A stretch of DNA of 52,826 nucleotides from a virus (Duplodnaviria; Caudoviricetes). How positions within the stretch are numbered: position 1 is the first letter of the stretch; every line of letters begins with the position of its first letter. Below the pieces are notes generated by a model. That model saw nothing but the letters and a program-made list of their open reading frames with translations, did not search any database and was not told where the DNA came from. Where the stretch lies: positions 1 to 52,826 of IMG/VR virus record IMGVR_UViG_3300046323_000202; one strand, written 5' to 3'. Below are positions 843 through 43,848 of this stretch, piece by piece. The position numbers were made by a program, and so were the translations under genes.

Positions 843-1253
843 ATGTCAGAAATACTGAATATAAAGAAAGCAGCAGAACGAAAATTGTCCTTGATTACTC
901 CAACCGTACCTACAGGATATGAAGCGGTTGATTTTAATCCTCCGGTTGATTCAATGTACCAACGGTGTCAATTCAGGATTGACTCTCCTGATGACCCTAG
1001 TTTACCTGTTGGGTTCCACAGAGAACAAGTGCAGATGCAAGTGTTCGTTTGTGATATTAAAGGACACGGTACAGGTTTAGCTCTTGCTCGTAGTGAGTTG
1101 ATCCGTAGTACTTTCAAACGAGGTCTAAGTATGATTGAAGGTAATGCACGGATTCGTGTCTTGACTACACCTCATATTGGTTCAGCATTCATATCAAATG
1201 ATAGGGTGATTGTACCAGTGATGATCGAGTTAACTTGTGACATAGATACATAG
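843..1253 (+). CDS. Tail terminator protein
   Basis: Size and position between neck gene and major tail protein; motifs FNPP, QVFV...G.GT, F.RG. Confidence 0.7.
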   Translation: MSEILNIKKAAERKLSLITPTVPTGYEAVDFNPPVDSMYQRCQFRIDSPDDPSLPVGFHREQVQMQVFVCDIKGHGTGLALARSELIRSTFKRGLSMIEGNARIRVLTTPHIGSAFISNDRVIVPVMIELTCDIDT

Positions 1254-1358
1254 GTTACTGAAAAGAATACAGCCAGTTGGCTACGTATGAATTGCTCTAG
1301 GCAATTATGGCAGCTATGCCTGAATAGCATTATTTGCAAATAATTAAGGAAAATATAA

Positions 1359-2576
1359 ATGGCAACAAAAGCAAAAGGCGTAAGTAAATTAGTCGCCTAT
1401 AAGAAAGAAACTACTTTCGGTACAGCAGCCGGTACTTCTGGCGGTAAACTCCTACGTAGGACTACCGCTGATTTTACTAGTAATCGTGAAAGTTATGAAT
1501 CCTCTGAGATTCGTGCTGATCGGCAAGTAGCTGATTTCCGTCTAGGTACTAAAAGTACTGATGGCTCATTGTCTGGTGAATTGTCTCCGGGTTCTTACTC
1601 TGATCTGATTCAATCAGTCCTAGCTAAGGATTTCGCAGTCGGTGGTACAGCCGCTGCTATCAGTGTTACTATTGCAGCTTCTGGTTCGTTCTTCACTTTG
1701 ACTCGTGGTACTGGTTCTTACTTGACTGACAACTTCAAAGTTGGTGAAGTCGTTCGTATGACTGGTGCTGGTTTGAACGTAGCTAACGTAGGTAATAACT
1801 GCCTAGTAGTCGCTGTGTCTGCACTCGTGTTGACTGTACGTGTTATCAGCGAAACTACTCTCATTGCAGAAGGCCCGATTGCTACAGTTACTATTACTGC
1901 TGCTGGTAAAGAGTCTATTGTACCTTTGACTGGTCACACTGATGATTCTTACAGCGTAGAAGAGTTCTACTCTGATATTGCTCAATCAGAACTCCACACT
2001 GGTGTTAAGTTCGGTAACTTCTCAGTCAATGTGCCAGCTACAGGATTGGTTACTACTGACTTTACAGCGATGGGTAAAGGGCTGGCTCTAACAGGTACTA
2101 GTGCTTATTTCGTAGCACCTGCTGCATTGTCCACGACTGGTGTAGTTGCTGCTGTTAATGGTGCAGTTATTATCAACGGTTCAGCTACTACTGCTTGCGT
2201 GACTTCGTTTGATCTGTCAATTGACCGTGAAATGGAAGCATCTCAGTGTATCGGTTCTAACTCCGCAGAGGAAATTTTCACTGGTGTTATTCGTGCTACT
2301 GGTAATCTCTCCATGTATTTCGAAGACGGTGTTGTGCGTAGTCTCTTTGAGAATGAATCACTGGTTACTCTGGTGTTGGCTCTCGCTACAGGCACTGAAA
2401 AAAATGCCGGCGTTATTACATTCACTATCCCTAAAGCAAAGCTTTCCAGCTTCTCTAAGGCAGATGGTTCAATGGGTATTACTGCTACTTCCGCATTCAC
2501 TGCTATGTTGAATGATGTTAGCACTGCTGGTCTGCCATTGACTACTATCCAAGTTGTTGATACCGCTGTAGTTTAA
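1359..2576 (+). CDS. Major tail tube protein
   Basis: AYKKETTFG, ESSEIRADRQ, G.LSGELS motifs; strongly biased codon use; SD AAGGA; followed by terminator and chaperone. Confidence 0.9.
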   Translation: MATKAKGVSKLVAYKKETTFGTAAGTSGGKLLRRTTADFTSNRESYESSEIRADRQVADFRLGTKSTDGSLSGELSPGSYSDLIQSVLAKDFAVGGTAAAISVTIAASGSFFTLTRGTGSYLTDNFKVGEVVRMTGAGLNVANVGNNCLVVAVSALVLTVRVISETTLIAEGPIATVTITAAGKESIVPLTGHTDDSYSVEEFYSDIAQSELHTGVKFGNFSVNVPATGLVTTDFTAMGKGLALTGTSAYFVAPAALSTTGVVAAVNGAVIINGSATTACVTSFDLSIDREMEASQCIGSNSAEEIFTGVIRATGNLSMYFEDGVVRSLFENESLVTLVLALATGTEKNAGVITFTIPKAKLSSFSKADGSMGITATSAFTAMLNDVSTAGLPLTTIQVVDTAVV

Positions 2577-2754: not shown

Positions 2755-3156
2755 ATGCTTGACTTAGCAGTAAAGAACCTAGCCGACCAATCCGAAGCAG
2801 GATATGAATTTGAGCTTACTTGGCCTCCAACTGGCGAGAAGACCGGGGCTTTTATTAAAATTCGTGGAGCGCAATCCAAGGTTGCCCGCGCATTCGCCCG
2901 TAAGAAGTACACTGAGTTTCGACAGAAAGAGCAGATGGCTAAACGTAAGGGGCGCGAAGAAGAAATGTCATTGGATGATGCTGAAGATATGGCAATTGAA
3001 ACTGCTATTACTCGGATCATTTCATGGAAAGGTATTACTAATGCAGGAGTGGATGTTCCTTTTAATAAAGAGAATGCAGAACGTATCCTTCGTGAACATT
3101 CATGGATCAGGGAATCTATCGTGGAGGAGAGCGATCAGCTCCTGAACTTTCAGTGA
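2755..3156 (+). CDS. Tail assembly chaperone (gpG-like)
   Basis: Between major tail and TMP; G.FI.IRG..S and IISWKGI motifs; ends NFQ*. Confidence 0.85.
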   Translation: MLDLAVKNLADQSEAGYEFELTWPPTGEKTGAFIKIRGAQSKVARAFARKKYTEFRQKEQMAKRKGREEEMSLDDAEDMAIETAITRIISWKGITNAGVDVPFNKENAERILREHSWIRESIVEESDQLLNFQ

Positions 3157-3538
3157 AGAGGACATTCTAGCTCTTAAAGAATACGCTGAGCAAGAGTTCA
3201 AGTTAAGTGCCCATCAAAAGGATGGGTCTACTTTAAGACAACAGCTAGAAGCAGTCGAACGTATCACTAAGAAGAAACCCAAGGAATTACTTGATCTAGT
3301 AGAGATACCAGATACTATGCGTGAGTACTGGCAGTGGTTCCTTGATTTGAATACTACTAGACCGAGTTCAATGAACGGTATATCTAGCATTCAGTATCTT
3401 GAGATGATGGCTTACTTTACTCTTAATGGCATCTGTGCTGAACCACAAGAGGTGCAGATAATTAAAATGCTTGATGGTGTAGCTATTAGTGCTGCACGCG
3501 AGCAAGAAGAGCAGAATAAGACCAAGAATAAAACGTAA
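3146..3538 (+). CDS. Tail assembly chaperone frameshift extension (gpT-like)
   Basis: Frame +2 is open from 3146 with no ATG until 3317; W..F..L...R motif; reachable by +1 shift at AAC TTT CAG TGA. Confidence 0.75.
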   Translation, partial: TFSEEDILALKEYAEQEFKLSAHQKDGSTLRQQLEAVERITKKKPKELLDLVEIPDTMREYWQWFLDLNTTRPSSMNGISSIQYLEMMAYFTLNGICAEPQEVQIIKMLDGVAISAAREQEEQNKTKNKT

Positions 3539-3547
3539 TAACTAACT

Positions 3548-3573
3548 TAAGCTCCTTCGGGGGCTTATTTTTT
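3548..3573 (+). terminator. Rho-independent terminator
   Basis: TAAGCTCC-TTCG-GGGGCTTA followed by a T run. Confidence 0.85.
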
Positions 3574-3631
3574 AATTAAATTCTCTGAGTCTAATTAAGA
3601 AATAATGCAAGAAAAGAAATAAAGGAATAAC

Positions 3632-6600
3632 ATGTCCCTCGACCTAAGCACGATAAAATTTCAAGTTAATACAGACGATTTAGTTGAAGCAGTTAAAAAG
3701 ATTGAGACACTGGGAAAGAGTGTTGAAGGACTAGCTACGTCCCTTGGAAAGTTAGATAAGGCTACTGCTGAAGCTAACAAGGAACAATCTCAAGCTAACC
3801 TTAACAACGCTAAGACTGAAGCAATTAATATCAAGAATGCTAAAACTCTTCGTGATTCAGCAGCAGCAAGTGACGAGCTAACAGACGCAACACGGAAGCG
3901 TCAATCCGTAGAAGAGCGTCAGGCTGCGATTACACGTCTTATGGCCGAAGGTAACTCCAGAGGCCAAGCGTCGATCCTAGCCACCGCTGAAGCCCTTGGT
4001 GAAGCTACTGAGAAGACCAATGAGTATCTTAAAGCTCAACGTGCAATGTCGAGCAACAATCCGTTCGACCGCAGTTTAGGTGCAGCTACTGTATTCGCTA
4101 ACGAGTTAAAGGTAGCCACAGTCGCCAGTGATCTCTACAATAAAGACTTAGGATTTACCAAGAATCAACTTCAAGAGTTGGGGCGTGAGCATGTTCGTCT
4201 GACTGAGCAATTCAAAGTCCAAGGTAAATCCTTGTCTGGACTTGATGCTGAATTCAATAAGATCGTCCAATCCGCCCAGCAAGTAACTCAAGCTGAAAAT
4301 GCAATGGCAGCATCCATGAAAAATGGACAGAAGGCCACAGTTGACGCAGGTAAAGCAAACGCATATATCGAAAGCGAACTCCAGAAAGTACGATTTGCTT
4401 TACAGGCTAATAACGAAGAGTTAAACCGCAGTACAGCTAACTCATTAGTGCGCTTTGAGAACGCCCTGAAGAAATCAGGTTTAACCCTAGATCAACAGAA
4501 GGTTAAAATTGATGAGTACCGTAAGGCTCAAGTAGAACTACAGAAAACTACCTCCGCAAATCAAACTGACTATATTACACGGGCAGTAGGTCCACAAATT
4601 ACGGATATTGTCGTAGGATTATCCACGGGTCAATCACCCCTAACAGTGATGATGCAGCAGGGTGGTCAGCTACGAGATCAGTTCGGTATGATGGGTATTG
4701 CTGCTAAGGATATGGGCGATGTAATGCGCAATGCCATGAAGGGTATGGCTCAGTCCGTTTTTGATACTGGCAAGGCTATCGGTAGTATGCTTGTTGGCGG
4801 TATTTATGATGCTGGTAAAGCTGTAGTTGATTTCGGAATGAATCTGACAAAAATGAATTCATTACTAGAAGGTGGAAAGCGTCTATTGGCAGCACAAGGT
4901 GAAGAGGGATTTAAGTACATTGGTATGCTTAATCGTGCTGGCGCAGTATTAACTGGTGTATTTGCTGTAGGTATTGCTGCTGGCGCATTAGTGGTAGTAG
5001 CTTTGGGTATTGCCTTTGCTCAAGTTACTAAAGCCCAAGATGATTTGACTAAAAGCTTAGTAAGCTCTGGTGCTCAACTTGGATTATCTAATGTAGATGC
5101 AATCGCACTAGCTGAATCATTAAGGGGTGTAGGGTCTACATCTGTTGAAATTCTTGCTGCATTTACACAAATATCAGAGTCTGGTAAGATCAGTCGTGAG
5201 TCTTTAGTTGCTGTTGCTGAGGCTGCATTACTTCTTGAAAATGCTGGTGGTAAAGCCGCATCAAAGACTATAGAGATGTTCACTAAATTAGCTGATAAGC
5301 CAATGGAGACATTATCAGAGTATGCACAGAAAACAGGGTTAGTAGATCAGGCAGAAATGCAAAGGATTGATACTTTAGTTAAGCTCGGACAGGAAATAAC
5401 AGCTACAGAAGAGTCAACTAAGATACTCACTAAAGCAACTGAAAATGAGGCAGCTATCATGGTAGCTAGTCTTAGTGATGTGTCACGCCTGTGGTTAACA
5501 GTCAAGGCTGGTACTAGCGAAGCATGGAGAGCAGTACAGGAGTTTGCTAGTTCCGCTGAAGTAATGAGTGTAGTCAAGGTTGTACTACAGACTGTAGCAG
5601 TATTGGCTACTGAAGTATGGTATGGCATTAAAGGTATTGGAGAATCCCTTGGTGGGCTAGGCGCAATAGCTGCTGCCGTGATGACTGATATTAAGAACTT
5701 AGATACTAACTTTACAGCTTCTAAGGGAATGTTGGGAATGATTGAAGAGCAAGATAAGGCTCGTGCTTCCTCCTATAATGATTCAATTGCTCGCATTATG
5801 CAAGAAGGTAAATACTCCAGAGAAGAGTTAAATAAAACCGCTGCACTTGCTGCTACTGGTCGTAAGGTTACCGCAGATGCTGAAAAAGATCGAGTAGCGC
5901 ACGAACTAGCTATGAAACCTTGGAGAGAGCAAGAGCAAAAGAGTCTAGCTGATAATCTGACTAAACAGGAATTCATTAAGCAAGCCATTGACAAGACTAA
6001 CAAAGCTCTAACAGAGGGTAAGACTTTACGCGCTGAAGAGATTGCTCAGATTACTAAATTGGCCGGTGCTGACTGGGATAAGTCCAACAAACCAAAGAAA
6101 ACTAAGTTAACTGATGAGCAGAAAGAAATAAATAAAGCTCGTGAAGAATATATTGATATTCAAAATAAAGCTATTGGTGTAAATAAGGATTTTAATAACC
6201 AATTAGAACGCCAGAATTTATTATTTACTAAAGGTGAAATCTCCGAAGAGGCTTACATTAAAGTAGTTCAAGATTTAATCAAGACTCAACCTTTCTATAT
6301 CAAAGGCTTAGCGGACGAAGAAAAGGCACAGAACGCTGCTAAAAAAGCGGCTGAAGATCACATGAAATTAGTGGAAGAATTCACTAAGATTAAAGCTAAG
6401 TTTATTGCTACTACATTAACTAATCAAACAGATATTACTAATGAGACTGCTTCATTAAAACTCCGTAATGAATTATTGGGTAAAACTGAAGAAGAACAAA
6501 AGAAGATTAATCTGCAATATAAAGCGCAAGGTGATATTACTAAGATTAATCTTAAGTACGATAAGCAACGTCTTGATTTACAGCAGGAATACTTAAAGTT

Positions 6601-22748: not shown

Positions 22749-23407
22749 TGTTTATCTCCTTGTTTAACTAATGCCTTCCATGCAACGGGAAATAAATCAA
22801 GTGCTTTTATGTTAATCATTTCAGCAACCTCTGTAGCCTCTTTCTGAGTATGAGGATCAAGCCTTAAGCTACACATCTTTGCAAAAGCAAATAAACTTCC
22901 TGACCAAACCCAATCAGTGCATGTATCTAGAAGTAAGGCTGCTCGTGCTTGCTCAGGTGCGACATTCAATGCTAATAGTTCATTATAAGCCTTCAATGAG
23001 TGTTCAGCTAAATCCCAAAAGATTTTATCCGCTAATTCAAAATCATTGTTATTCAATAAACCACCCGAGCCTTGTTTAATTGATTTATCAGGACGGTATC
23101 GCCATTCTAATTTAAAGAACTCCGGCACGTCATCAACATATCGGCGAGATGTTTCATTCCAAGGTAAATATTCGTGTTTTACTAGTTGTCGTGCTACAAA
23201 AATAGGTGCCTTTACTCGAAATGACATAAAAGCATGATTGAAGCAACTCTTATGATTGTGATCAGATAAATACCGAATCAGCTTACTATTCTGCTCATCT
23301 GAATACAAACCAGATGTTTTGTTAAATGAAACCCTTGCTGCATTGACTACTGAATTATCATTACCAAAATGGTCAATATACTCTACTTGTGTTGTTGTCT
23401 TAATCAT
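22745..23407 (-). CDS. thyX: Flavin-dependent thymidylate synthase
   Basis: VVNAARVSF, APIFVARQLVKH, NETSRRY, APEQAR, LRLDPHTQKE. Confidence 0.93.
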   Translation of the reverse strand: MIKTTTQVEYIDHFGNDNSVVNAARVSFNKTSGLYSDEQNSKLIRYLSDHNHKSCFNHAFMSFRVKAPIFVARQLVKHEYLPWNETSRRYVDDVPEFFKLEWRYRPDKSIKQGSGGLLNNNDFELADKIFWDLAEHSLKAYNELLALNVAPEQARAALLLDTCTDWVWSGSLFAFAKMCSLRLDPHTQKEATEVAEMINIKALDLFPVAWKALVKQGDKQ

Positions 23408-24044
23408 TTAACTCCTTAATTACTCTGTTGTAGATATCTGGAAAACTATAACCACTGCATATTGCCTGAAGACATTGGCGGCTATACTTATGATCCTCCA
23501 TGATCATATCAATCGCCCCTTGTTTGGCACGATTTAAGTCTCCTTTAATTTTTAAATATTTCCTGAGAATTATTTCTACCTCTTCGTCCTTAACTACAGA
23601 GTTAAGTGGACGTAATCCTTGAGATTTTCTAGCATGCGCGGAAATTCTGCACCTATCGGCGGCAGGTTTATCTAAATTATTATCCCTAGAACTACCAATC
23701 GCAATGTTGTTTTTACTTAAATCAAGTTTATTTGCGTTAAGGTGTCTTACGTTAACCCCTTTTCTTAATGCAATTTCTCCATATAGTAAATATGCAACAA
23801 ATTTGTGAATGGCAAAAGAGACATTTTTCTTTCTTCCTGTATTGTCATTCATAGTTAAGAACGGATACCTTTGAGTACCGTACTGTTTTGGTTTCATTCT
23901 TGTGCCCAACGGTGTAACAACTTCTTGAGAGTTAAAATCAAAATAGTAACCTCTTTCTACTGCTTTAATTATGTTAAGACAATTGCTGCTGTACTCTAAA
24001 GGATAGTTGATTATACTCTCAGGAATTTCTGGTAGAAATGTCAT
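23400..24044 (-). CDS. Free-standing HNH homing endonuclease
   Basis: IHKFVA...VRHLNANK...N motif; AT-rich; overlaps thyX start. Confidence 0.7.
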   Translation of the reverse strand: MTFLPEIPESIINYPLEYSSNCLNIIKAVERGYYFDFNSQEVVTPLGTRMKPKQYGTQRYPFLTMNDNTGRKKNVSFAIHKFVAYLLYGEIALRKGVNVRHLNANKLDLSKNNIAIGSSRDNNLDKPAADRCRISAHARKSQGLRPLNSVVKDEEVEIILRKYLKIKGDLNRAKQGAIDMIMEDHKYSRQCLQAICSGYSFPDIYNRVIKELND

Positions 24045-24052
24045 AGTTCTCC

Positions 24053-24256
24053 TTATTCTGCGTTAGTAATGTCTGTACTTTCACCTGTGTTAATCCAATA
24101 AGAATCAAAGGGTGCATCTGTGGCTTTCACATGAAAGATTCCTTGTGCTTGAAGCTCCACTACTTGTACGTTGCGTCCGTTATGAAGGAATACTTCACCT
24201 AGTGTGTACTGCTTAATAGGTGTATCTTTTGTTTGTGCGTTTGTATTCTTAGTCAT
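24053..24256 (-). CDS. Hypothetical protein
   Basis: SD AAGGA, downstream of a promoter. Confidence 0.65.
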   Translation of the reverse strand: MTKNTNAQTKDTPIKQYTLGEVFLHNGRNVQVVELQAQGIFHVKATDAPFDSYWINTGESTDITNAE

Positions 24257-30426: not shown

Positions 30427-30503
30427 TGGTGCGAGTGGAGAGACTTGAACTCCCGACATGTTGTGTAGAAGACAACTGTTCTATCCAACTGAACTACACT
30501 CGC
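30427..30503 (-). tRNA. tRNA-Arg(UCU)
   Basis: Cloverleaf: acceptor GCGAGTG/CACTCGC, D arm with A20, anticodon stem GTTGT/ACAAC with loop CT-TCT-AC, TTCAAGT T loop, encoded CCA. Confidence 0.95.
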
Positions 30504-32902: not shown

Positions 32903-34996
32903 TTAGAGAACTTTCTGCATTTGCTTCAAGTACTCGCACAGATGCACGTCAGAAATATTCCGGTGCATTTCCCAAGCTGATACCTTCAGAAGAGGGTACT
33001 TATCTAGAATGTTAGCATAGAATGTTTTCATCTTGTACTTACGTTCAGTGGGCACAGAATGAACCAAAGAATTGTACTTCATGAAGTTGACCTTAGCATT
33101 GAACTCAGGTGTAATCTTGCTATCACTATAGACTGAGCTTTTCTTTACTTTGTTAGCAAACGCAATCAAACGAGCCAATTCATTATCTGGTGCTTTGCTT
33201 GTAATCATCTTCGCTTTACTATTCCAATCGTGAACTTGAGATTTAACAGCAGTATAAAAAAGGTTCTTCTTATAGATAAAGAAATCCTCGTCTGACTGAT
33301 GCTCTTCGGTCTTCTGATTGATGTATTGCTCCAATGAAATACACTCACTATTCAAGTGCTTAACTGATGCTTCACGCAGAGCAATCAAGTCCAATACATC
33401 GTCGAATTTCTTCAGTTCTTCGTATTGGCTAACACGAGCAACATCCTGAAAATTCACTAGGTTAGCATCCTTCACTATAACATAAACCATAGGCTCAGTA
33501 ACATCCTTCAGTGACTCGTAGGACTTATCCCAATCTCGGATATTGTTACCTTCATTGTATTCGTAGTAACTAACCACTGAACTCTTAGAACGCACTCCAG
33601 AGGCTACGGACGGTAAAACAATACTGCTCATCAAGATAACGTTATCGAAGCCTCCTAGGGCTGTTTTAACGACCTGTACATCGTATTGCTTATCGAACAT
33701 TTCGATCTCGTACACCTGCTGTAGTTTTGGGTTCGTTTTAAGCACATGCTTAATCTTCGTAGCTGATAGGTGTGTTTTATCCCGTAATACTACCAGCAAT
33801 TGATCCGAAGGCATAGGCCGAATTCTACCAGCACTGCGCTTTTTATTCTTCATTGAACGATCAATAAAGTAGACCATTCCTTGCAATAAAACACCACCGG
33901 CGGGGCGCTTCATGATTGCCTCAAGATTGAAGTACCAATCAGAGCCGAACTTTGTAGCTGTGGTGAACACTGTATCTTTTGCCAAGCGACTGAGTACTTG
34001 GCTTGAATTCAAGTACTCTGTGCGTTCCCATTCCGTTACTTTGCTCTTTAACTGAGCATTAATATACTCTTGAACTTGCGCTCGTACCAGCGTCATCTTG
34101 GCGTTGATATTAGCCAACGTAGTAGCGTTGTATTCTACGCCCTCACGAGAAGCAGTTACACCAATCTGACCAATCTCAAAATTCAACTCAATGTAAAGCC
34201 CCAGGTTACTCTCAAAGAACTTATAGTGTTCTGGCATTGCCTCTTTAAGATTATCAATAGCCAAAGGATAACCTACATTGCCTTGGATAATGTACGGAGC
34301 TTTCTTGTAGTAAGAATTACCAGTATCAATAATCCGAGCATCCACTGTCTCGAGAATGACAACACCACCTTGTTCTTGGTAAGTACAAGTTCCATTTTCA
34401 ATCCGGGGTTTGACCTTGAAGAATTTCAACTGTTCTTGAACTTCATTCTTGAACTTCACGTAGTCTTGACTCTTGACTGAGAGTTTAATCTCTACACCTG
34501 ATGGTTCTGTTGATTCGCTGCTGTACATTTCAATGATGTTCGGCACACCTGACTCAGTGATAAATGCAGAGTAGATCGTGCAGATACCATCTTGGTAAGA
34601 AGTTACCGTGAACTGGTCGGTGTAGCTGAAAGGTGTCTTTGCTCCGAGTCCTAGCATACCTGTACACTCATTAGATTGGTCTTTTGTACTTGCAAAGTAC
34701 ACGGTAAAGACATTCTTGATATCGCTTGCGCTCAGTCCTTTACCGAAGTCACGAACAGAAAACCAAGGAGAGAAATTATCAGGAAGATGAATGACGAACT
34801 CTTGATCGGCTTTATCAGCTTGAACGTGTGCATCATTTGCATTACAGGAGATTTCACGAACAATCGCTCCAATTTTATTTTCATAGAGCGTGTCGGAAAG
34901 TACACGGAAAGCCTTGGAATTGAACGCTATAGTGAACGCACCTGTATTGTTACCACCTTGGACTTCGACTGGAGAGGACTGATTAGTGAGCTTCAA
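32903..34996 (-). CDS. rIIA: RIIA-like protein (GHKL ATPase N-terminus)
   Basis: AF..LS..LY.NKI.A.VREISCNA.DAH, VRDFG.G, STK..SN...G.LGLG.K.PF.YTD; upstream of rIIB. Confidence 0.92.
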   Translation of the reverse strand: MKLTNQSSPVEVQGGNNTGAFTIAFNSKAFRVLSDTLYENKIGAIVREISCNANDAHVQADKADQEFVIHLPDNFSPWFSVRDFGKGLSASDIKNVFTVYFASTKDQSNECTGMLGLGAKTPFSYTDQFTVTSYQDGICTIYSAFITESGVPNIIEMYSSESTEPSGVEIKLSVKSQDYVKFKNEVQEQLKFFKVKPRIENGTCTYQEQGGVVILETVDARIIDTGNSYYKKAPYIIQGNVGYPLAIDNLKEAMPEHYKFFESNLGLYIELNFEIGQIGVTASREGVEYNATTLANINAKMTLVRAQVQEYINAQLKSKVTEWERTEYLNSSQVLSRLAKDTVFTTATKFGSDWYFNLEAIMKRPAGGVLLQGMVYFIDRSMKNKKRSAGRIRPMPSDQLLVVLRDKTHLSATKIKHVLKTNPKLQQVYEIEMFDKQYDVQVVKTALGGFDNVILMSSIVLPSVASGVRSKSSVVSYYEYNEGNNIRDWDKSYESLKDVTEPMVYVIVKDANLVNFQDVARVSQYEELKKFDDVLDLIALREASVKHLNSECISLEQYINQKTEEHQSDEDFFIYKKNLFYTAVKSQVHDWNSKAKMITSKAPDNELARLIAFANKVKKSSVYSDSKITPEFNAKVNFMKYNSLVHSVPTERKYKMKTFYANILDKYPLLKVSAWEMHRNISDVHLCEYLKQMQKVL

Positions 34997-35111
34997 GATA
35001 TTCCTTTGTATTTAATTCGATGTAGTGATTGTAGTGCACTTTAGCTGCCTTCTTGCATAATCGCTTTGATTAAATACCATTTAACTTTAGTCTGATTTCA
35101 GCATTCCCTTG

Positions 35112-35453
35112 TTAAACCCGAGAATCTGGATCACCTAGTAATTCAGGCGTAATCTCAGGTATTTCATTGAAGTCCCAACATTCAGAACCATTGTATTCAA
35201 ATCGACTACTCCACGTTACACCGTCATTGTACCAGATAGTGCCATAGAGATTCTGACCGCCGTAACCATCATTGTACTCTAGATTGATCTCCTTCAAGAA
35301 CTCTTCTAGGTCTTCTGGAGTGTATCCAACGGGTAGAATGGCCTCTACTTTGTTCTTTGCATTGTAGAGTTTGATCTGAGCGCAACGGACGGTTCTACCA
35401 CCTACGCAGCGTTCAGAGATGTGGTCTAGAAATTCTTGTTTAGCGTTGGTCAT
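35112..35453 (-). CDS. Hypothetical protein
   Basis: YNDGYGGQ.L.GTIW..DG.W..R.EY.GSE.W motif; start after SD AAGGA. Confidence 0.7.
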   Translation of the reverse strand: MTNAKQEFLDHISERCVGGRTVRCAQIKLYNAKNKVEAILPVGYTPEDLEEFLKEINLEYNDGYGGQNLYGTIWYNDGVTWSSRFEYNGSECWDFNEIPEITPELLGDPDSRV

Positions 35454-35466
35454 GGTTTCCTTTCGT

Positions 35467-36015
35467 TTAACTTGTAGTGATTGTAGCATCAATCATATCT
35501 GTAATGTCTTTTCTACTCCTCTTATTCATAATGCTACTGATCGTTGTCCTTGGCTTACACATACTCCTAGCTACCTCAGCAACGCCTTCACCGGACTTGA
35601 CACGAGTGTAGCAGTCAATGACTTGTTCTTTAGTAAGAATCACAATTGAAGCATCAGTTGACCGCTTAATCATCCGTCCTTCCTCGTGCGCGTGTTTGAT
35701 GTTATCTGAACCTGAAATCCACTCAAGGTTGTCAACGTGGTTGTTGGACTTGTTGCAGTCTTTATGGTTCACTTGAGGGAGATTATCTGGATTGTCCAAG
35801 AAATGTTTAGCGACTAAACGGTGAATGTAATCGCGTTTGCTTTTAGTTTTACCAGAGTCAGACCTATAAGTTGCAACTTGCACTGAGAAATAACCCGCGC
35901 CATTGTCAGTTAGCTTTCGATGCTCTCCTTTTGTGTTAGTGATAAATCCTGTGTTAGATACTCGTGATGTAATAACCCCATTGAAGTAGACATCTTTCCA
36001 AATTTCTGTTGTCAT
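35467..36015 (-). CDS. Free-standing HNH homing endonuclease
   Basis: EIWK...VSNTG (NUMOD4-like), IHRLVA.HF, VNHKD.NK.NN..DNLEW....N..H, C-terminal HTH-like region. Confidence 0.9.
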   Translation of the reverse strand: MTTEIWKDVYFNGVITSRVSNTGFITNTKGEHRKLTDNGAGYFSVQVATYRSDSGKTKSKRDYIHRLVAKHFLDNPDNLPQVNHKDCNKSNNHVDNLEWISGSDNIKHAHEEGRMIKRSTDASIVILTKEQVIDCYTRVKSGEGVAEVARSMCKPRTTISSIMNKRSRKDITDMIDATITTS

Positions 36016-36032
36016 ATAAGCCCTTTAAATAA

Positions 36033-36191
36033 TTAGTGAACATCACGCCAGCTACCTTCGTAGCTTATCTTACCTTCTCCGTTAAGTGGCAATGCTAGCT
36101 TGAGTAATTCGCCAGCTTTAACAATAGCCTTAACACTCATTTTTTGGATAGCTTCCTGTGCACCATCTTCGACTTCAAAGCTGTATTCGTC
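36033..36191 (-). CDS. DNA polymerase family A, exon 2
   Basis: DEYSFEV...AIVKAGELLKL.LPL.GEGKI...GSWRDVH*, the normal PolA C-terminus; no own start. Confidence 0.92.
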   Translation of the reverse strand, partial: DEYSFEVEDGAQEAIQKMSVKAIVKAGELLKLALPLNGEGKISYEGSWRDVH

Positions 36192-36421
36192 CTTACTGTT
36201 GTGTACTTCGTTAGAGTACGCCCAGATTGCTCCGGGTGTCGGGCTAGCTCACCTTCCACCAGGGAAGTCTTCCATTTCGGATTCACTTGAACCCTACTCC
36301 CTTTCGGGATAGCCTCCACACGTTCCCTGCTAAGGGCTTCGCTCGGTATTGCCCACGAGGGGTTTCACCGAATTAGAAAGATTATTCGACTGATATTACT
36401 ACCAGAAGGCACCACAAATTA
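36192..36421 (-). ncRNA. Group I self-splicing intron (230 nt, ORF-less, IA2-like)
   Basis: Splits motif C VH|DE; exon ends in U, intron ends in G; P AAUUCGGUGAA, Q AAUACCGAGC, P7 GGCUA/UAGCC, P3, P7.1/P7.2, P8, GNRA-capped P2 and P9. Confidence 0.92.
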
Positions 36422-38386
36422 ATGCACCATTGAAATACGCTTAACTACTTTACCTTCTAGCAAATAGTAAGGTCTGCCTAACTCATCCAAATACATATCC
36501 CCAAGCCAAGTATCCATCAGACAAGCTGCATAGGACATTGCAATAGCACCACAACCTTGCCCTAGACACGATAGTAGCACGTTCTTACCACGAACAGAAA
36601 CAATACGTCCATCAATAGCTGGAATGTACTTTTTCTTACCAGTTGTCTCAAAGTACCCCTCGACTTGTTTCTTGAGTAACCCCAGACCTTTATTACTTTC
36701 CCAGTAGTTATCAAACGCTGCTTTGCCTGCACTCTGAGATAAACCAAGACTACTTGCTAGCTTAGGCGCTCCACCACCGAATGCCAGAAGGTATGCTCCA
36801 GTTTTAGCCTTGTTCCTCCATGACTTGAACTCAGGATTCTCTTTGTTAGTCTGGTCATTAATATCGAACTTCTCGTGCAATGCAGGAAAGAAAGCAAATG
36901 CGTTAAAACTATGAGGATCGCCCTCAGTCTGCATCCTAGCAAAAGCGCCATCATCGTACTTGTATGTGTAGCTACTGAGTGTTCTATTTTCAAGAGCGGC
37001 AGCATCAGTTCCACAGTACCAATAACCATTGTCAACATAGAACAAATCCCGCATTTCATTTCCAAGTAGAACCTTTGGGTCAGCCTTGGGACAATTCACT
37101 ACTGTCTTGTGCTTAACCCTTGACGTTGGTGCATAGCCAGAAATCTCAGCAGACAATCTCCCATCGAATTCAATACGCCAATTAGATAACCAACCATTGA
37201 CTACCCCTAATCTGTTTCTTAATGAAAGAAACTTAACTACCTTACGAGGAATCTCCCCATTTAGTTTCTCAAGATTAGGACAAAGCTGGCCTTGATTTTG
37301 AATCTTTGGTGTTGTCTTAATGAACTTATTCTTTTCGTCACGTATTGGCTTACCGTCTGGACCTTTCTTTACATTCCAGAAATCCTCATGAGGCTCCCAC
37401 CCGGAATCAATAAAGTACTGTTTTAACTCAGCGTTATCATCAATTTCCATTGGGAGTTCAATCGGTAGTACAGCATTCGCTTCGAGCTTTACCTTTAATC
37501 CATAGGCTTCAATCCAGCCATTACTCAATGTAGCACTGTGCTTCTCTAACCATTTAACCATCAACGCAGACATCTCACCGTTCTTTGTGAAGGGCTTACT
37601 TGGCTGCTTATAGAATGCTTGCTCTGCGGTCTTTAAAGCCCTAGGTGGTAGCTTAGGGTCAACCTCTAGCTTAATTACCTGCATAGCCTCTTCTACGTGC
37701 TTTACAAGGGCTTGTGCTTTGTCTACATTGAACCTAACACCAGTGTAAGCTTGCGCTGAGTACAGAAAGTAATCCTTCTGCATTTGACGAAAGCTAGGAT
37801 GCACCCAGTTCTCGCCATATAGAACTTGCGCTTGACCCCAAAGATTATTGAATACTTTAATCGTAGCATCCACGTCACGGTTACAGTAAGGCTCCATTAA
37901 CTCGTGATAAAAACTGAACTCGGTTCCCTTGGGTGAATCACGTTCTAACGCTCCAGCATCAATTAGACTTTTCCTATAGTCAATCTTACCTTCTTCATCC
38001 TCTGAACCAGAGAGGTACTCAAGGGAATGCTTAATTGAATTAGGATTCAAGTACATACTCAGAACGTAAGTATCCACGAATTGTACGTGCTTATCCTCAA
38101 TCCAATCCTTGCCGCCTTTACCTACCCTTGGCTGAATTCCAAGGAGCTTCCAGAGTACCCATAAATCGTACCCAAGACCATTATGCTGTACTACATAAGC
38201 ACCATCGTCGAATGAGTTCACCCACTGCATGATCTTTTCATAGTTCACTTCAGTACTATCACGAAATGGATGAATGCTTATTTCTCGTGCTCCGCCCAAT
38301 GACTTGAACTTGATGTACCAAATCTTCTTTGATTGTAAGTACAAATTATCAGCTTCAATGTCAAAGCACCAACCGTTTATGCTCAT
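36422..38386 (-). CDS. DNA polymerase family A, exon 1 (spliced product 707 aa)
   Basis: Exo motifs FDIEAD, HNGLGYD, YCNRDV; motif A GTDAAALENR; motif B RNKAKTGAY; ends ISMVH at the intron. Confidence 0.93.
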
Positions 38387-38410
38387 ATCAACCTTTCAGT
38401 GTTTAAAAAT

Positions 38411-38450
38411 AAAAAGACAGTCTACCACAAGATGATAGCTGTCTTTTGTT
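38411..38450. terminator. Hairpin/terminator between helicase and polymerase
   Basis: AAAAGACAG...CTGTCTTTT stem with A/T flanks. Confidence 0.55.
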
Positions 38451-38457
38451 TACATGC

Positions 38458-40230
38458 TTAAAACGTATCCATCCCATTCTCTTTCTTCCATTCTTCTAAA
38501 TCATACATTTGATGTGTATCGGAACAATAGTACAAATCCCCTGCCGCCCCAGTAATACTTCCTCTACGATTCTTACTAAGAACTACGTGAGTTGTATTTC
38601 TGACAATAGGATCAGTATTGTACTTGTCCCTACTTAACATAGCTACCCATGATGCACTCTTCGTTAAGGCTCCAGAACCATAAATGGCTTCCTCTGGTAC
38701 AAAAGCTCCAGAACTAGCAGCACCTTTATTGTCAGAGGACTTTCTAATGTGAGCAAGTAGCAAGAAACTAACCGGATAAGTTTTCATCGTACTTTTCAAA
38801 AACTTCATAAAACCAGCAGCAGCTTCGTGTGGAAGTGATTCGAATAGGTCGGATACCGGATCAAGGATAATAATCTGACACCCACCGGAGATAATCATTT
38901 CGAGTATCTTATCTTCCATAACTTCAATGCTGAAATCACGTTCATCAAGCACCATAAACCTATCAGCACCAGTCTCTGTTTTAAACAACTCATCAGACTT
39001 AGCTTTAATATCAGGTGTCTTCAAGTAATTAATACGCTCTACTGGATCATTAATTGATGAAATTCGGTTGTGGATATGACGAGAAAGAAGAGCCTGTGCA
39101 TACTGTCCTGCATCCAATTCAAGACTAACAATACCTGTCTTGTACTGTGTATTAAATAGTAAGTGATAAATAATCTCGTTAGCTATTGTTGTCTTGGCAG
39201 CACCTGTTCCTGCTGCGATAACTCCACAAGTCTGCAACTCAAATGATCCAAGCATAGTCTCTAACTTGGACATAAAAGGTGGAAACGGAATACGTTCACG
39301 TCCAGCTTGCTCCAAAAGTTTTTCATACAATTCAGAACTACCTACTACACCTGCGGGTACGTATGCCTTAGCATTGTAGTAATCACTAATAAACAGTTTC
39401 TCAAGATCATCCTCTAACATTTTATTAGGGTCTTTACGACTCCACTTAGCAATGAATACTTTACCTTTTGGGAGCGCAGCGATAGCCTTTTCTGTCGCTT
39501 CAATACCAGCATCATCCTGATCGAATCCCAGTACAATACGATCAAACCCATCATAGAATGCATAATTCTTAGCTAATTGTTTGGCGCAACCAGTCTCACC
39601 AACTGTAGGAGAAACTACCGGAGTCTCGTAATCCCAGCCTTTACTTTTATAGTAGTTCTGAAGCATCTGATATGCGGCTAGTGCATCGTGCTCTCCACCT
39701 ACGATAAGAACGAACTTACCTCCAGTTTTGAACTTAAATTGGCCGAACATATCACAAGTATTTCCAGTACGTCCGATACTTCCACCAAAGATTTTCGGAT
39801 GTACCCTTGGCTTCCAACCTGAAAGTTCCCCATCTTCTGTACATGGATAATAAACAGCAGATACATCCCCGGACTCTTCATCGTACTCTGTACGTACACC
39901 GTAGGCTTTCAGAGTGGCATCTGAAATTCCACGGTAGTTATTCCCTTTCAGTGAAGTACGGGATTTCAGTTCTTCAGTTTGTTCTGGTGTAACTGCTGCT
40001 TTACTCTTTTGTTTATCTTCACTCATAGTATCCTTTGTTTTATCTTGTTTAATATTCCGTTTACCTTTAGTCTTCTCTGCGTTCTTACTCTCAATGTACT
40101 CTTTACTTGCTACAGTTTTACCGCAGCTAAAGCAATGAGAGTTCTCACTTCCGTCTTCATCTTGATAGACGGCTTTAGCGTCAGAGCTTCCACAGCTATC
40201 GCAGCCTTCGTGTCTCAATAAAACACTCAT
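38458..40230 (-). CDS. T7 gp4-like DNA primase-helicase
   Basis: N-terminal CDSCGSSD...CFSC Zn finger, TOPRIM GEHDA/FDQDDAG/KDPN, Walker A AAGTGAAKTT, ILDP, HIRK, YGSG, KNR. Confidence 0.93.
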   Translation of the reverse strand: MSVLLRHEGCDSCGSSDAKAVYQDEDGSENSHCFSCGKTVASKEYIESKNAEKTKGKRNIKQDKTKDTMSEDKQKSKAAVTPEQTEELKSRTSLKGNNYRGISDATLKAYGVRTEYDEESGDVSAVYYPCTEDGELSGWKPRVHPKIFGGSIGRTGNTCDMFGQFKFKTGGKFVLIVGGEHDALAAYQMLQNYYKSKGWDYETPVVSPTVGETGCAKQLAKNYAFYDGFDRIVLGFDQDDAGIEATEKAIAALPKGKVFIAKWSRKDPNKMLEDDLEKLFISDYYNAKAYVPAGVVGSSELYEKLLEQAGRERIPFPPFMSKLETMLGSFELQTCGVIAAGTGAAKTTIANEIIYHLLFNTQYKTGIVSLELDAGQYAQALLSRHIHNRISSINDPVERINYLKTPDIKAKSDELFKTETGADRFMVLDERDFSIEVMEDKILEMIISGGCQIIILDPVSDLFESLPHEAAAGFMKFLKSTMKTYPVSFLLLAHIRKSSDNKGAASSGAFVPEEAIYGSGALTKSASWVAMLSRDKYNTDPIVRNTTHVVLSKNRRGSITGAAGDLYYCSDTHQMYDLEEWKKENGMDTF

Positions 40231-42329: not shown

Positions 42330-43220
42330 TCAAAGATCAATCTTATCACGGATGCCCTTAAAAACCCCAAACCGGGGCACATCATACCCGCCCACATCGA
42401 AATATTTAACAGTAGCCAACTTACCAACTAGACTGTCGCGCACAGCCCACAGTTCATCCCTTGTTTTATCATCAAAGCCACTACCGCAACCGAACTCTTT
42501 ACCTTCTGGTGTACGCAAATAAAGTACTCCAAGTGTGTCCAGTGCAACCATACCTTCTTTATTGGTCGAACGTGAGGTTCTGCCTAGCTCATTAACTTTA
42601 GCTTCATTTGAATTATGGTACTTGCACTCAAATCCTACGATTTCGAATTCAGAGTCTCTGAACAATTTCATTTTCAGTAGCAACCCTTCCTTGATACTTG
42701 ACCTTCCGAACTTGTACTTTCCAGTCATTTTCTTAACCATAGCACCCTCATAACCCTCTTCCACTGCTTTAGTCCTGTAAGCCTCCAGTTCAACCTCAGA
42801 TCGTACAACAGTCTGCTTCAGCACTACTACCCTAGGAATCAATGGAAGAGCTTCTAGGGCTTCCTGACGCTCTTGTGCTGTGGATGTAATATTCACTCTA
42901 TCAAAAGCAAAGAACTGGAATTCCTCGACTTTATCAATTGACATTACGAAACTGGTTGTATCCCGAAATACTGTCTCGGACGTAGGTGAACCGTTAATGA
43001 ACTCTCCGTCAAGTCCTTCAAGATTCTGAGCATTCTCCTTAGCCCATTTCTGGATGGAAAGATTAGGAATCAGCTTAAGACTACGAGAATAAGCTACACC
43101 GTTGAAAATGGTTGCTCGAATACCGTCTAGCTTTTTACTAACATACAAAGGGTAACTGAGCTTACTCAAGTCATCAATTTGTGTCGCTAACATCGGGGAG
43201 AACTTACGATCTTTATTCAT
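42330..43220 (-). CDS. ATP-dependent DNA ligase
   Basis: PMLA, KLDGIR, LDGE, FD, GYEG, Y..GRS, LLK.K, GSGF, PRF. Confidence 0.93.
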   Translation of the reverse strand: MNKDRKFSPMLATQIDDLSKLSYPLYVSKKLDGIRATIFNGVAYSRSLKLIPNLSIQKWAKENAQNLEGLDGEFINGSPTSETVFRDTTSFVMSIDKVEEFQFFAFDRVNITSTAQERQEALEALPLIPRVVVLKQTVVRSEVELEAYRTKAVEEGYEGAMVKKMTGKYKFGRSSIKEGLLLKMKLFRDSEFEIVGFECKYHNSNEAKVNELGRTSRSTNKEGMVALDTLGVLYLRTPEGKEFGCGSGFDDKTRDELWAVRDSLVGKLATVKYFDVGGYDVPRFGVFKGIRDKIDL

Positions 43221-43756
43221 TTTCCATGCCTTTCTGTATAATCACCAATTGTGCTCAGCTTGTCTTCTCTCCAGTTGATTGCCAACTCCAGAGCGGCCTC
43301 TTCACCAAGTTTTAAAAGATTGAAAGATTTACTTCTGGTTTTACCGTCATGTTTGATTGTAGCAATAACATACTCGATAGTGTTGACAGTGTAAAAACCT
43401 ATCCCAGTAATACCTGAGATATTATTAGATTGCTTTCTTCTATTCCTAGTGTTAACTTTTTGAGATGTCACTCTTATATTCTTTATATTGTTATTATAGG
43501 GATTTCCATCTAGATGGTCTATAATAAAATTATTTAGAATTTCTTTGCTATTTAATATAGCAATAATTCTATGTACTAACCACCTTCCACTATTAAATGA
43601 AAGCATCCATCCTATACGCCCAAGCGACTTCGCTTTTTTAGAAGGTATTCTACCAACTGGTTTATTATTTAAGTTACTTAAACCAGTTGGACTATCACTA
43701 TCTAATTTAAAATGCAATTTCCAATCTACTTCATAGTAGTCTCTTGTTGTTTTCAT
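43217..43756 (-). CDS. HNH-AP2-type homing endonuclease
   Basis: VHRII, IDHLDGNPYNN.I.N.R, N.SG..G and AP2-like C-terminus; very AT-rich; start at SD-preceded ATG 43756. Confidence 0.85.
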   Translation of the reverse strand: MKTTRDYYEVDWKLHFKLDSDSPTGLSNLNNKPVGRIPSKKAKSLGRIGWMLSFNSGRWLVHRIIAILNSKEILNNFIIDHLDGNPYNNNIKNIRVTSQKVNTRNRRKQSNNISGITGIGFYTVNTIEYVIATIKHDGKTRSKSFNLLKLGEEAALELAINWREDKLSTIGDYTERHGK

Positions 43757-43807
43757 ATTTTCTCCTGTTAAAACTAGAGTATACCTCAAAAGAGCGCGAG
43801 TCAACCT

Positions 43808-43848
43808 CAAAAACAACAAAAGCTCCTATCCGTTAGAACAGGAGCTTT
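43808..43848 (-). terminator. Terminator
   Basis: AAAGCTCCT/AGGAGCTTT stem with minus-strand T-rich tail. Confidence 0.7.

Follow-up and report, generated by a model that had tools for sequence, protein, structure and literature searches.

How can a group I intron that encodes no nuclease of its own spread through the DNA polymerase genes of phages, and does the HNH endonuclease gene that stands directly behind such a polymerase gene have a part in it? The question is raised by the window, by which we mean the whole 52,826-nucleotide (nt) stretch of IMG/VR virus record IMGVR_UViG_3300046323_000202, for which completeness is estimated at 63%. Here the gene for a family A DNA polymerase (PolA; 38386..36033, minus strand) is split by an intron between the His and Asp codons of the motif VH|DE. 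A first-pass annotation had described the intron as nuclease-less, had placed an intact HNH gene 17 nt past the polymerase stop and about 175 nt from the insertion site, and had likened the pair to a collaborative homing system. Its anatomy proves exact, as the HNH ATG lies 17 nt from the polymerase stop and 176 nt from the insertion site by our measurement. The relatives that we compared suggest, without proving, that intron and HNH are mobile together, as a selfish element in two parts, of a kind familiar from other phages.

The split polymerase gene, its intron and the HNH gene

Exon 1 matches PHROG 17 'DNA polymerase' with an E-value of 1.2e-71 and reaches 23.7 bits against Pfam DNA_pol_A, under the cut-off of 34.3. 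Joined in silico, the exons give a 707-residue protein in which VHDE is restored and which aligns without gaps to the uninterrupted polymerases of Pseudomonas phage vB_PsaM_M1 (M1 below) and Acinetobacter phage D22; the counterparts of exon 1 and exon 2 are contiguous in 25 of 26 close relatives. Because exon 2 holds the catalytic Asp-Glu, the phage needs splicing for an active polymerase, and the 230-nt intron is predicted to be self-splicing. Where the intron goes unrecognized, annotation of such phages will show a truncated polymerase gene together with a short open reading frame (ORF).

The intron matches the full Rfam group I model RF00028 at 36431..36220 with 32.4 bits (E-value 1.5e-6 on 501 nt) against a cut-off of 50, and it is therefore missing from the gathering-level Rfam scan of the window, which reported a tRNA only. 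The conserved catalytic core of a group I intron, comprising P3 to P9 with the P7 pseudoknot, is nevertheless backed by covariation, and the intron is real. In an alignment of five complete intron copies (that of the window and four homologues from the same site), RNAalifold recovered 60 pairs, with compensatory changes in 36. With the P7 pseudoknot added by hand, the structure holds 60 pairs in 12 helices, 96.9% of its cells are paired and both sides have changed in 38 of the 60 pairs; none of 500 shuffles reached the observed values, and partners that were slid along the alignment paired in 38-47% of cells. Two hairpins lie between P7 and P3', an arrangement typical of subgroup IA phage introns. 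Other classes of insertion were considered and rejected: a group II intron (RF02003, 12.8 bits, E-value 1.8), an intein, given the in-frame stop and the RNA-type structure, and an HNH gene encoded within the intron, given that the HNH gene is located after exon 2.

Six further alleles, retrieved through the polymerase and through the HNH protein, have their intron at the very same codon boundary, CAT|GAY-GAR. The loci of relatives are given here by number with the prefix L, and the introns are those of L005, L036, L037/L119, L038, L131 and L155. The internal guide covaries with the exon that it pairs with, as GCAU in the window and L005 is matched by GUGC, and CCAU in L036, L038, L131 and L155 by GUGG. 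All introns end in G, and the His codon is CAT in all seven intron-bearing alleles, while the intron-less alleles of clade A have CAT in 12 cases and CAC in 13. A nuclease ORF cannot fit in the 230-nt intron of the window and none stands there in the ORF list; likewise, no ORF or ORF remnant was found in any of the seven introns, which measure 228-263 nt. Between the window and L005 the introns are 77% identical and the polymerase genes about 73-85%, and the 33 nt before the splice site (36422-36454 in the window, 4930-4962 in L005) and the first 11 nt after it are identical. RNA constraint, gene conversion or a nuclease site may account for this identity.

A megablast search of the locus against the phage collection returned a match of 41 nt in the intron core only (36272-36312 in the window, 3001-3041 in L149). 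Seven Vibrio phage genomes (129-139 kb) have this 41-nt sequence with 100% identity. In one of them, PS17B-2, it falls where nothing is annotated, with a fragment of a portal protein on one side and an HNH endonuclease gene on the other; here the portal gene is probably split by an intron that carries a nuclease of its own.

The PolA gene is also interrupted at other places in relatives. Three close relatives (L026 at 4477-5412, L030 and L017) share an in-frame insertion of about 309 residues at GDPH|C...GN|T that reads like an intein, and the window polymerase is uninterrupted at this point (DPHSFNAF). A group I match of 33.4 bits lies at another PolA position in L142 (1786-2013), and L238 has about 700-1000 extra nt within exon 1 (about 2972-3982). 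Among cultured T7-like phages, the polymerase genes of Erwinia phage phiEa1H (L150) and Acinetobacter phage APK44 (L152) are split at other sites, the former by an intron with a small ORF and the latter with an intron-encoded HNH, and each has one more HNH gene directly behind the polymerase gene.

The HNH gene of the window is intact. It matches PHROG 59 'HNH endonuclease' with an E-value of 5.4e-37 and scores 24.2 bits against Pfam HNH_3, slightly under the cut-off of 24.8. Its only match in the PDB is I-HmuI (1U3E), with E-values of 4.6e-8 (single sequence) and 6.5e-16 (profile built from eight relatives). H84 (the His of NHKD), N91, N92, N96 and N105 are invariant in the eight relatives and align with DHKD...NN...N of I-HmuI; they would be the catalytic His and the Asn residues of the HNH (beta-beta-alpha metal) motif. 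The residue before the conserved His is Asn in the window HNH and Asp in I-HmuI. The enzyme is probably a nickase. The alignments with 1U3E stop at residue 115 to 125, leaving about 55 C-terminal residues unaligned by sequence. This region is conserved (KPRTTISSI.NKRSR.DITD), has a weak match to Pfam HTH_SB (E-value 0.0071, below the cut-off), and looks like a helix-turn-helix DNA-binding domain. Against relatives whose synonymous sites are unsaturated, the ratio of nonsynonymous to synonymous substitution (dN/dS) is about 0.08-0.12, and the gene is therefore maintained by purifying selection. A scan between the polymerase and HNH genes of the window detected no promoter-like or terminator-like site. 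In L036 a near-consensus sigma-70-like promoter (TTGACA, 17 nt, TACAAT) stands at 2225-2260, in the 60-nt gap before the HNH gene.

Intron and nuclease in relatives

The first-pass annotation had proposed to check in relatives whether intron and nuclease co-occur, and the answer has two sides. To keep the sample unbiased with respect to HNH, IMG/VR was sampled with four polymerase queries, the query's own locus and short loci being left out. The window polymerase brought 29 loci, of which 26 reach the insertion site, one bearing the intron (L005) and 25 lacking it; the L036 polymerase brought 27, of which 24 reach the site, two intron-bearing (L119 and L131) and 22 intron-less. The L038 polymerase brought four loci (three reaching the site) and that of L155 six (all reaching it), and every one of these nine is intron-less. 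L017, L028, L031, L138 and L144 were excluded from the counts because they do not reach the insertion site, L118 is the same DNA as L036 and L145 the same as L038, so that each was counted once, and L207, which has tandem HNH genes in an unrelated context, was left out.

The polymerase-sampled loci were searched in all six frames with a hidden Markov model (HMM) of the HNH subfamily. It scores 271-296 bits in L005, L036 and L038 and 113.6 bits in L131. An I-HmuI-like HNH gene abuts the polymerase gene in all seven assembled intron-bearing alleles (window, L005, L036, L037/L119, L038, L131 and L155), starting 0-60 nt past the polymerase stop in six of them and lying directly upstream in L131 (1923..2492), where it has a NUMOD4 match. 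Among the 56 intron-less relatives (25 + 22 + 3 + 6), an I-HmuI-like HNH of at least 100 bits was found in none, and nothing scored above 39 bits; in five of these loci (L009, L128, L146, L147 and L148) fewer than 600 nt are available behind the polymerase gene. This one-sided dependence of the intron on the HNH in assembled genomes is what mobilization in trans predicts.

The association also repeats across the polymerase phylogeny. In a tree of the C-terminal 330 residues of PolA (64 rows, IQ-TREE quick search, LG+G4; loci L234-L239 not included), the seven intron-bearing alleles fall in five lineages with mutual identities of 24-29%, and several have intron-less sisters: L146 beside L038, L129 and L130 beside L131, and M1 beside L155. 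At a minimum, the tree calls for six changes of the intron and eight of the HNH. Five independent contrasts lie on well-supported branches, and in them the HNH is concordant with the intron in about four, discordant in none and tied in about one (L155 against M1). The intron-HNH association is thus consistent and repeated, though formally unproven.

The nuclease and the polymerase have different histories. The HNH of the window and that of L036 are 61% identical where their polymerases are 26% identical, and for the window and L005 the figures are 58% and 80%. L036 and L037 have polymerase proteins that are 99% identical and introns that are 95% identical, and their HNH genes (2280-2852 and 379-951) encode proteins of only 80.5% identity, with synonymous sites near-saturated (proportion of synonymous differences, pS, 0.68). 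The near-identity of the polymerases beside such divergent HNH genes means that the HNH has been replaced by another allele and therefore exchanged on its own. A tblastn search with exon 2 of the window found no match in L036 or L038. Since both parts recur in polymerases less than 30% identical that do not share exon 2, a functional link is argued for, against the inheritance of a single block. The positions of the features discussed here and below are collected in the table.

Table. Positions of the genes, exons, introns and nuclease genes at the window locus and in relatives (window numbering unless a relative is named).
Feature	Location	Strand	Description
DNA polymerase exon 1	36422..38386	-	655 amino acids, ends ...ISMVH, last codon CAT (36424..36422)
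DNA polymerase exon 2	36033..36191	-	52 codons plus stop (36035..36033); DEYSFEV...SWRDVH; catalytic Asp-Glu of motif C
Group I intron	36192..36421	-	230 nt, without ORF; in-frame TAA at start, G at end; P2-P9 with P7.1/P7.2-type hairpins
Internal guide sequence GUGC (intron nt 10-13)	36409..36412	-	pairs with exon GCAU (36425..36422), U.G at splice site, helix P1
I-HmuI-like HNH endonuclease gene	35467..36015	-	182 amino acids, ATG, AAAGGG 8 nt upstream, intact
HNH_3 core	35701..35829	-	residues 63-105, ...HRLVA...PQVNHKDCNKSNNHVDNLEW...N; Pfam match
HNH cassette, absent from X4 contig	35494..36039	-	546 nt: last polymerase codons, spacer, HNH minus last 27 nt
Primase-helicase	40230..38458	-	gene before polymerase
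PHROG 3972 gene	35453..35112	-	gene after HNH
L005 intron	4963..5194		RF00028 46.5 bits
L036 intron	1828..2063		RF00028 unreported at E-value <= 0.001
L119/L037 intron	two ends of one circular contig, 31-nt overlap		whole intron outside RF00028 scan
L038 intron	3445..3707		RF00028 77.5 bits
L131 intron	4283..4510		RF00028 80.9 bits
L155 intron	about 1015..1268		RF00028 79 bits
Other-type nucleases in the slot behind the polymerase	L010 5170-5769; L015 5125-5667; L020 5072-5734		mostly with AP2 domain
Other-type nucleases in the slot, further loci	L021 5091-5675; L032 5336-5911; L120-L123 about 4300-5020

Proposed collaborative homing and its rivals

The reading that we tentatively favor, and to which we give close to an even chance, is collaborative homing in which the HNH cuts at or beside VH|DE. 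One part of the element would be the ORF-less, self-splicing intron in VH|DE at the 3' end of the polymerase gene, and the other the free-standing I-HmuI-like HNH, predicted to be co-transcribed 17 nt behind that gene. In a mixed infection the HNH would cut the polymerase gene of a relative with neither part, most likely within a few bases of the insertion site, and donor-templated repair would then copy a block of about 780 nt that contains the intron, exon 2 and the HNH. As the intron splits the target in the donor, it would be mobilized in trans and may protect its carrier. The position of the cut, the strand that is cut, self-protection and co-conversion are what we infer from the genes and their arrangement, and the same holds for the proposals of the first-pass annotation that the HNH would cleave intron-less alleles at VH|DE, that the intron would confer immunity and that competing phages may be attacked.

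Several observations weigh against this picture. The sign test on the contrasts stands at 4:0 with p = 0.125, the best value that four pairs can give. Identity profiles around the site reveal no clear co-conversion tract: the window and L005 show no more than a mild rise in identity near the junction, and the comparisons of L038 with L146 and of L131 with L129 give a mosaic pattern without a clear tract. No 9- to 12-mer near the HNH, upstream or downstream, is common to at least four of the nine HNH-bearing loci, so that a shared target, if there is one, must be degenerate. I-HmuI is reported to cut intron-plus as well as intron-less alleles (PMC3428280); protection by the intron is consequently not implied by homology, and equal cutting of both alleles by the window HNH would be compatible with mobilization.

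The distribution of the nuclease is the other difficulty, and it is here that the co-occurrence expected by the first-pass annotation gives way in part. Seven I-HmuI-like HNH genes stand behind uninterrupted PolA genes, with identities to the window HNH of about 40% in M1, D22, Liucustia, D'Alembert and VH-8, 44% in L156 and 54% in L154, where the polymerase motif reads HDD instead of HDE. The two HNH genes nearest to that of the window (L034, 76%; L035, 70%) lie directly behind family B polymerase (PolB) genes without the VHDE codons, and no intron was detected at these polymerases. Taken together, the HNH genes at least 51% identical to that of the window, with the latter included, stand behind an intron-bearing PolA in six cases, an uninterrupted PolA in one and a PolB in two. 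The slot behind the polymerase is moreover a hot spot for nucleases, as nine intron-less relatives have another HNH_3 or HNH_3-AP2 gene there. Thus, the nuclease accompanies every assembled intron allele and is absent from all 56 sampled intron-less relatives, yet it is partly distributed independently of the intron, as the seven uninterrupted PolA genes, the two PolB genes and one intron-bearing contig without HNH attest.

In L034 (1779-4540) and L035 (1762-4567) the HNH gene lies 8-15 nt behind the PolB gene, and the order is primase-helicase, polymerase, HNH, followed in L035 by the PHROG 3972 gene. The HNH occupies the same slot behind PolB as behind PolA, and therefore it marks a boundary of PolA/PolB exchange.

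The contig without HNH comes from one of four freshwater runs (X3-X6, from four studies) whose contigs were placed on 34900..38500. X3 and X6 contain pieces of the HNH gene with zero differences, while a contig of X4 (1643 nt, depth 7.76) has the 3' end of the polymerase gene, the whole intron and exon 2 and lacks the HNH, a further point against the favored reading. It matches 36040..36587, from the last part of exon 1 through the intron into exon 2, at three differences in 548 nt, and then jumps to 35493 with two letters (GC) in between; about 290 unplaced letters and a PHROG 3972 gene at about 91% identity follow. The junction would still encode ...DVH-stop, which argues for a real HNH-less allele over an assembly chimera, though a chimera is possible. 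No listed contig of the four runs skipped the intron, which is not evidence that an intron-less near-identical strain is absent.

Two rival explanations stay alive because the HNH occurs behind intron-less PolA and PolB, because the slot is a hot spot and because of the intron-only contig. One is homing in trans by mere proximity, as for T4 MobE: the HNH would recognize its own insertion site or some other sequence, away from the intron site, within the final few hundred bases of the polymerase gene, and the intron, 176 nt away, would be co-converted as a passive passenger and give no protection. MobE mobilizes the nrdB intron through a cut that lies away from the intron site (PMC2790892), and the HNH keeps its slot without an intron behind PolA, in seven cases, and behind PolB; it is also present or absent in an otherwise 99.5% identical polymerase-intron background, which indicates that it moves alone. 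The lineages of PolA do not share exon 2, however, so that no single block has traveled between them, and yet the pair recurs in five lineages; a pure passenger would also be expected at other positions, and all seven introns sit at one codon boundary. We regard this explanation as somewhat unlikely. The other supposes that intron and HNH are selfish elements with no tie to each other that meet at a hot spot of recombination, the intron an old resident of a conserved polymerase motif and the HNH one of many colonizers of the gap behind polymerase genes, with the co-occurrence owed to shared history or sampling. The unrelated HNH_3-AP2 genes in the slot of nine intron-less relatives speak for it, as do the HNH genes without intron, the contig with intron and without HNH, the inteins and other introns at other PolA sites of relatives, and an independent-contrast test that does not reach significance (p 0.125). 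A record of seven out of seven against none out of 56 over five lineages, with intron-less and HNH-less sisters in four, is nonetheless hard to obtain by chance or common descent, and we consider independence unlikely, a shade more so than mobilization by proximity.

A different possibility concerns the origin of the arrangement. The intron may have lost an endonuclease gene of its own and the free-standing HNH may have come later, in which case the locus would represent decay and replacement and not a stage before fusion. Such turnover has been proposed as an alternative for loci of this kind (PMC10448857), and the replacement of the HNH behind the near-identical polymerases and introns of L036 and L037 fits it. 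None of the seven introns, at 228-263 nt, holds an ORF or a remnant of one, and we judge turnover to be quite improbable; it is in any case compatible with present-day mobilization in trans, whether collaborative or by proximity.

A bolder version of collaborative homing is that the ORF-less intron and this subclade of HNH depend on each other and have, as a module, moved more than once into PolA genes less than 30% identical, with the guide retuned each time, and that a genome can carry the HNH only where the intron splits the polymerase target or where that target is altered (HDD in L154) or absent (PolB in L034 and L035). We hold this to be doubtful, as a conjecture that the series of alleles would accommodate.

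Precedents, phage context and meaning

The comparison with cyanophage S-PM2 that the first-pass annotation had drawn is apt, and a closer precedent is the PolA site itself, in the introns of phages PhiI and W31 at 'site 881' and in gene 5.3 of T3. The PolA intron of PhiI and W31 reportedly encodes the HNH endonuclease I-TslI and T3 gene 5.3 is said to be a free-standing HNH gene (both attributed to Bonocora and Shub, 2004 and 2009), and the same authors are said to have found in 2009 that both I-TslI and gp5.3 cleave polymerase genes without an intron, and do so at one position. We take 'site 881' to be His881|Asp882 of QVHDE in the numbering of E. coli Pol I, that is, the boundary that is split in the window. 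The host gene is the same in these systems, a family A polymerase, and the insertion site is apparently the same. As in T3, a free-standing HNH stands directly behind the polymerase gene, with 166 nt from H|D to gene 5.3 and 176 nt to the HNH in the window. The window differs in having an ORF-less intron and a free-standing HNH together, where T3 has the HNH without the intron and PhiI has the HNH within it, and in belonging to a Felix O1-like and not a T7-like phage. Gp5.3 is 27% identical to the window HNH over 82 residues (pairwise E-value 2e-5), which places the two in a shared superfamily and in different subfamilies. The location of the PhiI and W31 introns at site 881 is given in PMC3428280, and the work of Bonocora and Shub is cited there as well as in PMC3984707, PMC2988022 and PMC10448857.

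The concept of collaborative homing comes from psbA of S-PM2 with F-CphI and from T7-like polymerases (PMC3984707, PMC2988022), and free-standing nucleases that target the sites of ORF-less introns are described for two phage systems (PMC3984707, PMC2790892). The psbA intron with its free-standing F-CphI, attributed to Zeng, Bonocora and Shub (2009), has the layout for which the term was coined (PMC3984707, PMC2790892). There, the host gene is psbA, F-CphI uses an Endo VII-type motif (PMC6083498), and cleavage at the intron site has been demonstrated, whereas for the pair in the window it is a prediction. I-HmuI of Bacillus phage SPO1 (1U3E), the closest solved relative, aligns with the HNH profile over positions 5-125 and is likewise linked to a PolA intron; it differs in being encoded inside its own intron, at another PolA site (PMC3428280). 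T4 MobE resembles the window HNH as a free-standing HNH beside a gene whose intron lacks a working nuclease, the two being inherited together (PMC2790892). What is new here is the coexistence of an ORF-less intron and a free-standing HNH at this PolA site, with a nuclease of the I-HmuI-like kind, in a freshwater Felix O1-like phage and with recurrence across lineages. Our literature search found no paper on this particular case; supplementary tables, including the nuclease neighborhoods of PMC10448857, lay outside its coverage and may list related loci.

The host phage has about 84 kb and a Felix O1-like gene content, and the runs that best contain the stretch are labeled freshwater metagenome. 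The nearest cultured polymerase is that of M1 (Ounavirinae), with 42.7% identity in exon 1. Around the locus all genes lie on the minus strand, in the order primase-helicase, PolA, HNH, PHROG 3972 gene and homologues of rIIA and rIIB. Elsewhere in the window, two more ORFs are of the HNH_3 type, one at 43220-43825 (minus strand) with a weak AP2 match and one at 23403-24062 (minus strand) with a weak match of 17.1 bits, below the cut-off. A tRNA-Arg (anticodon TCT; 30427-30503, minus strand) is the sole RNA gene at Rfam thresholds.

In the usual account of how mobile introns originate, a free-standing nuclease and an ORF-less intron converge on a conserved site and later fuse. To our knowledge, direct examples of the two-part stage are few. 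The present locus places that stage at the polymerase site that has been studied in T3, with the nuclease only, and in PhiI, with the fused form. Five polymerase lineages, together with HNH-only, intron-only and empty alleles, form a comparative series in which specificity, protection and co-conversion are testable with synthetic DNA. If intron and HNH were indeed a mutually dependent module, the series would document, in nature, the stage that precedes fusion when mobile introns arise, and also exchanges of entire polymerase genes, driven by nucleases, at a boundary that a nuclease marks.

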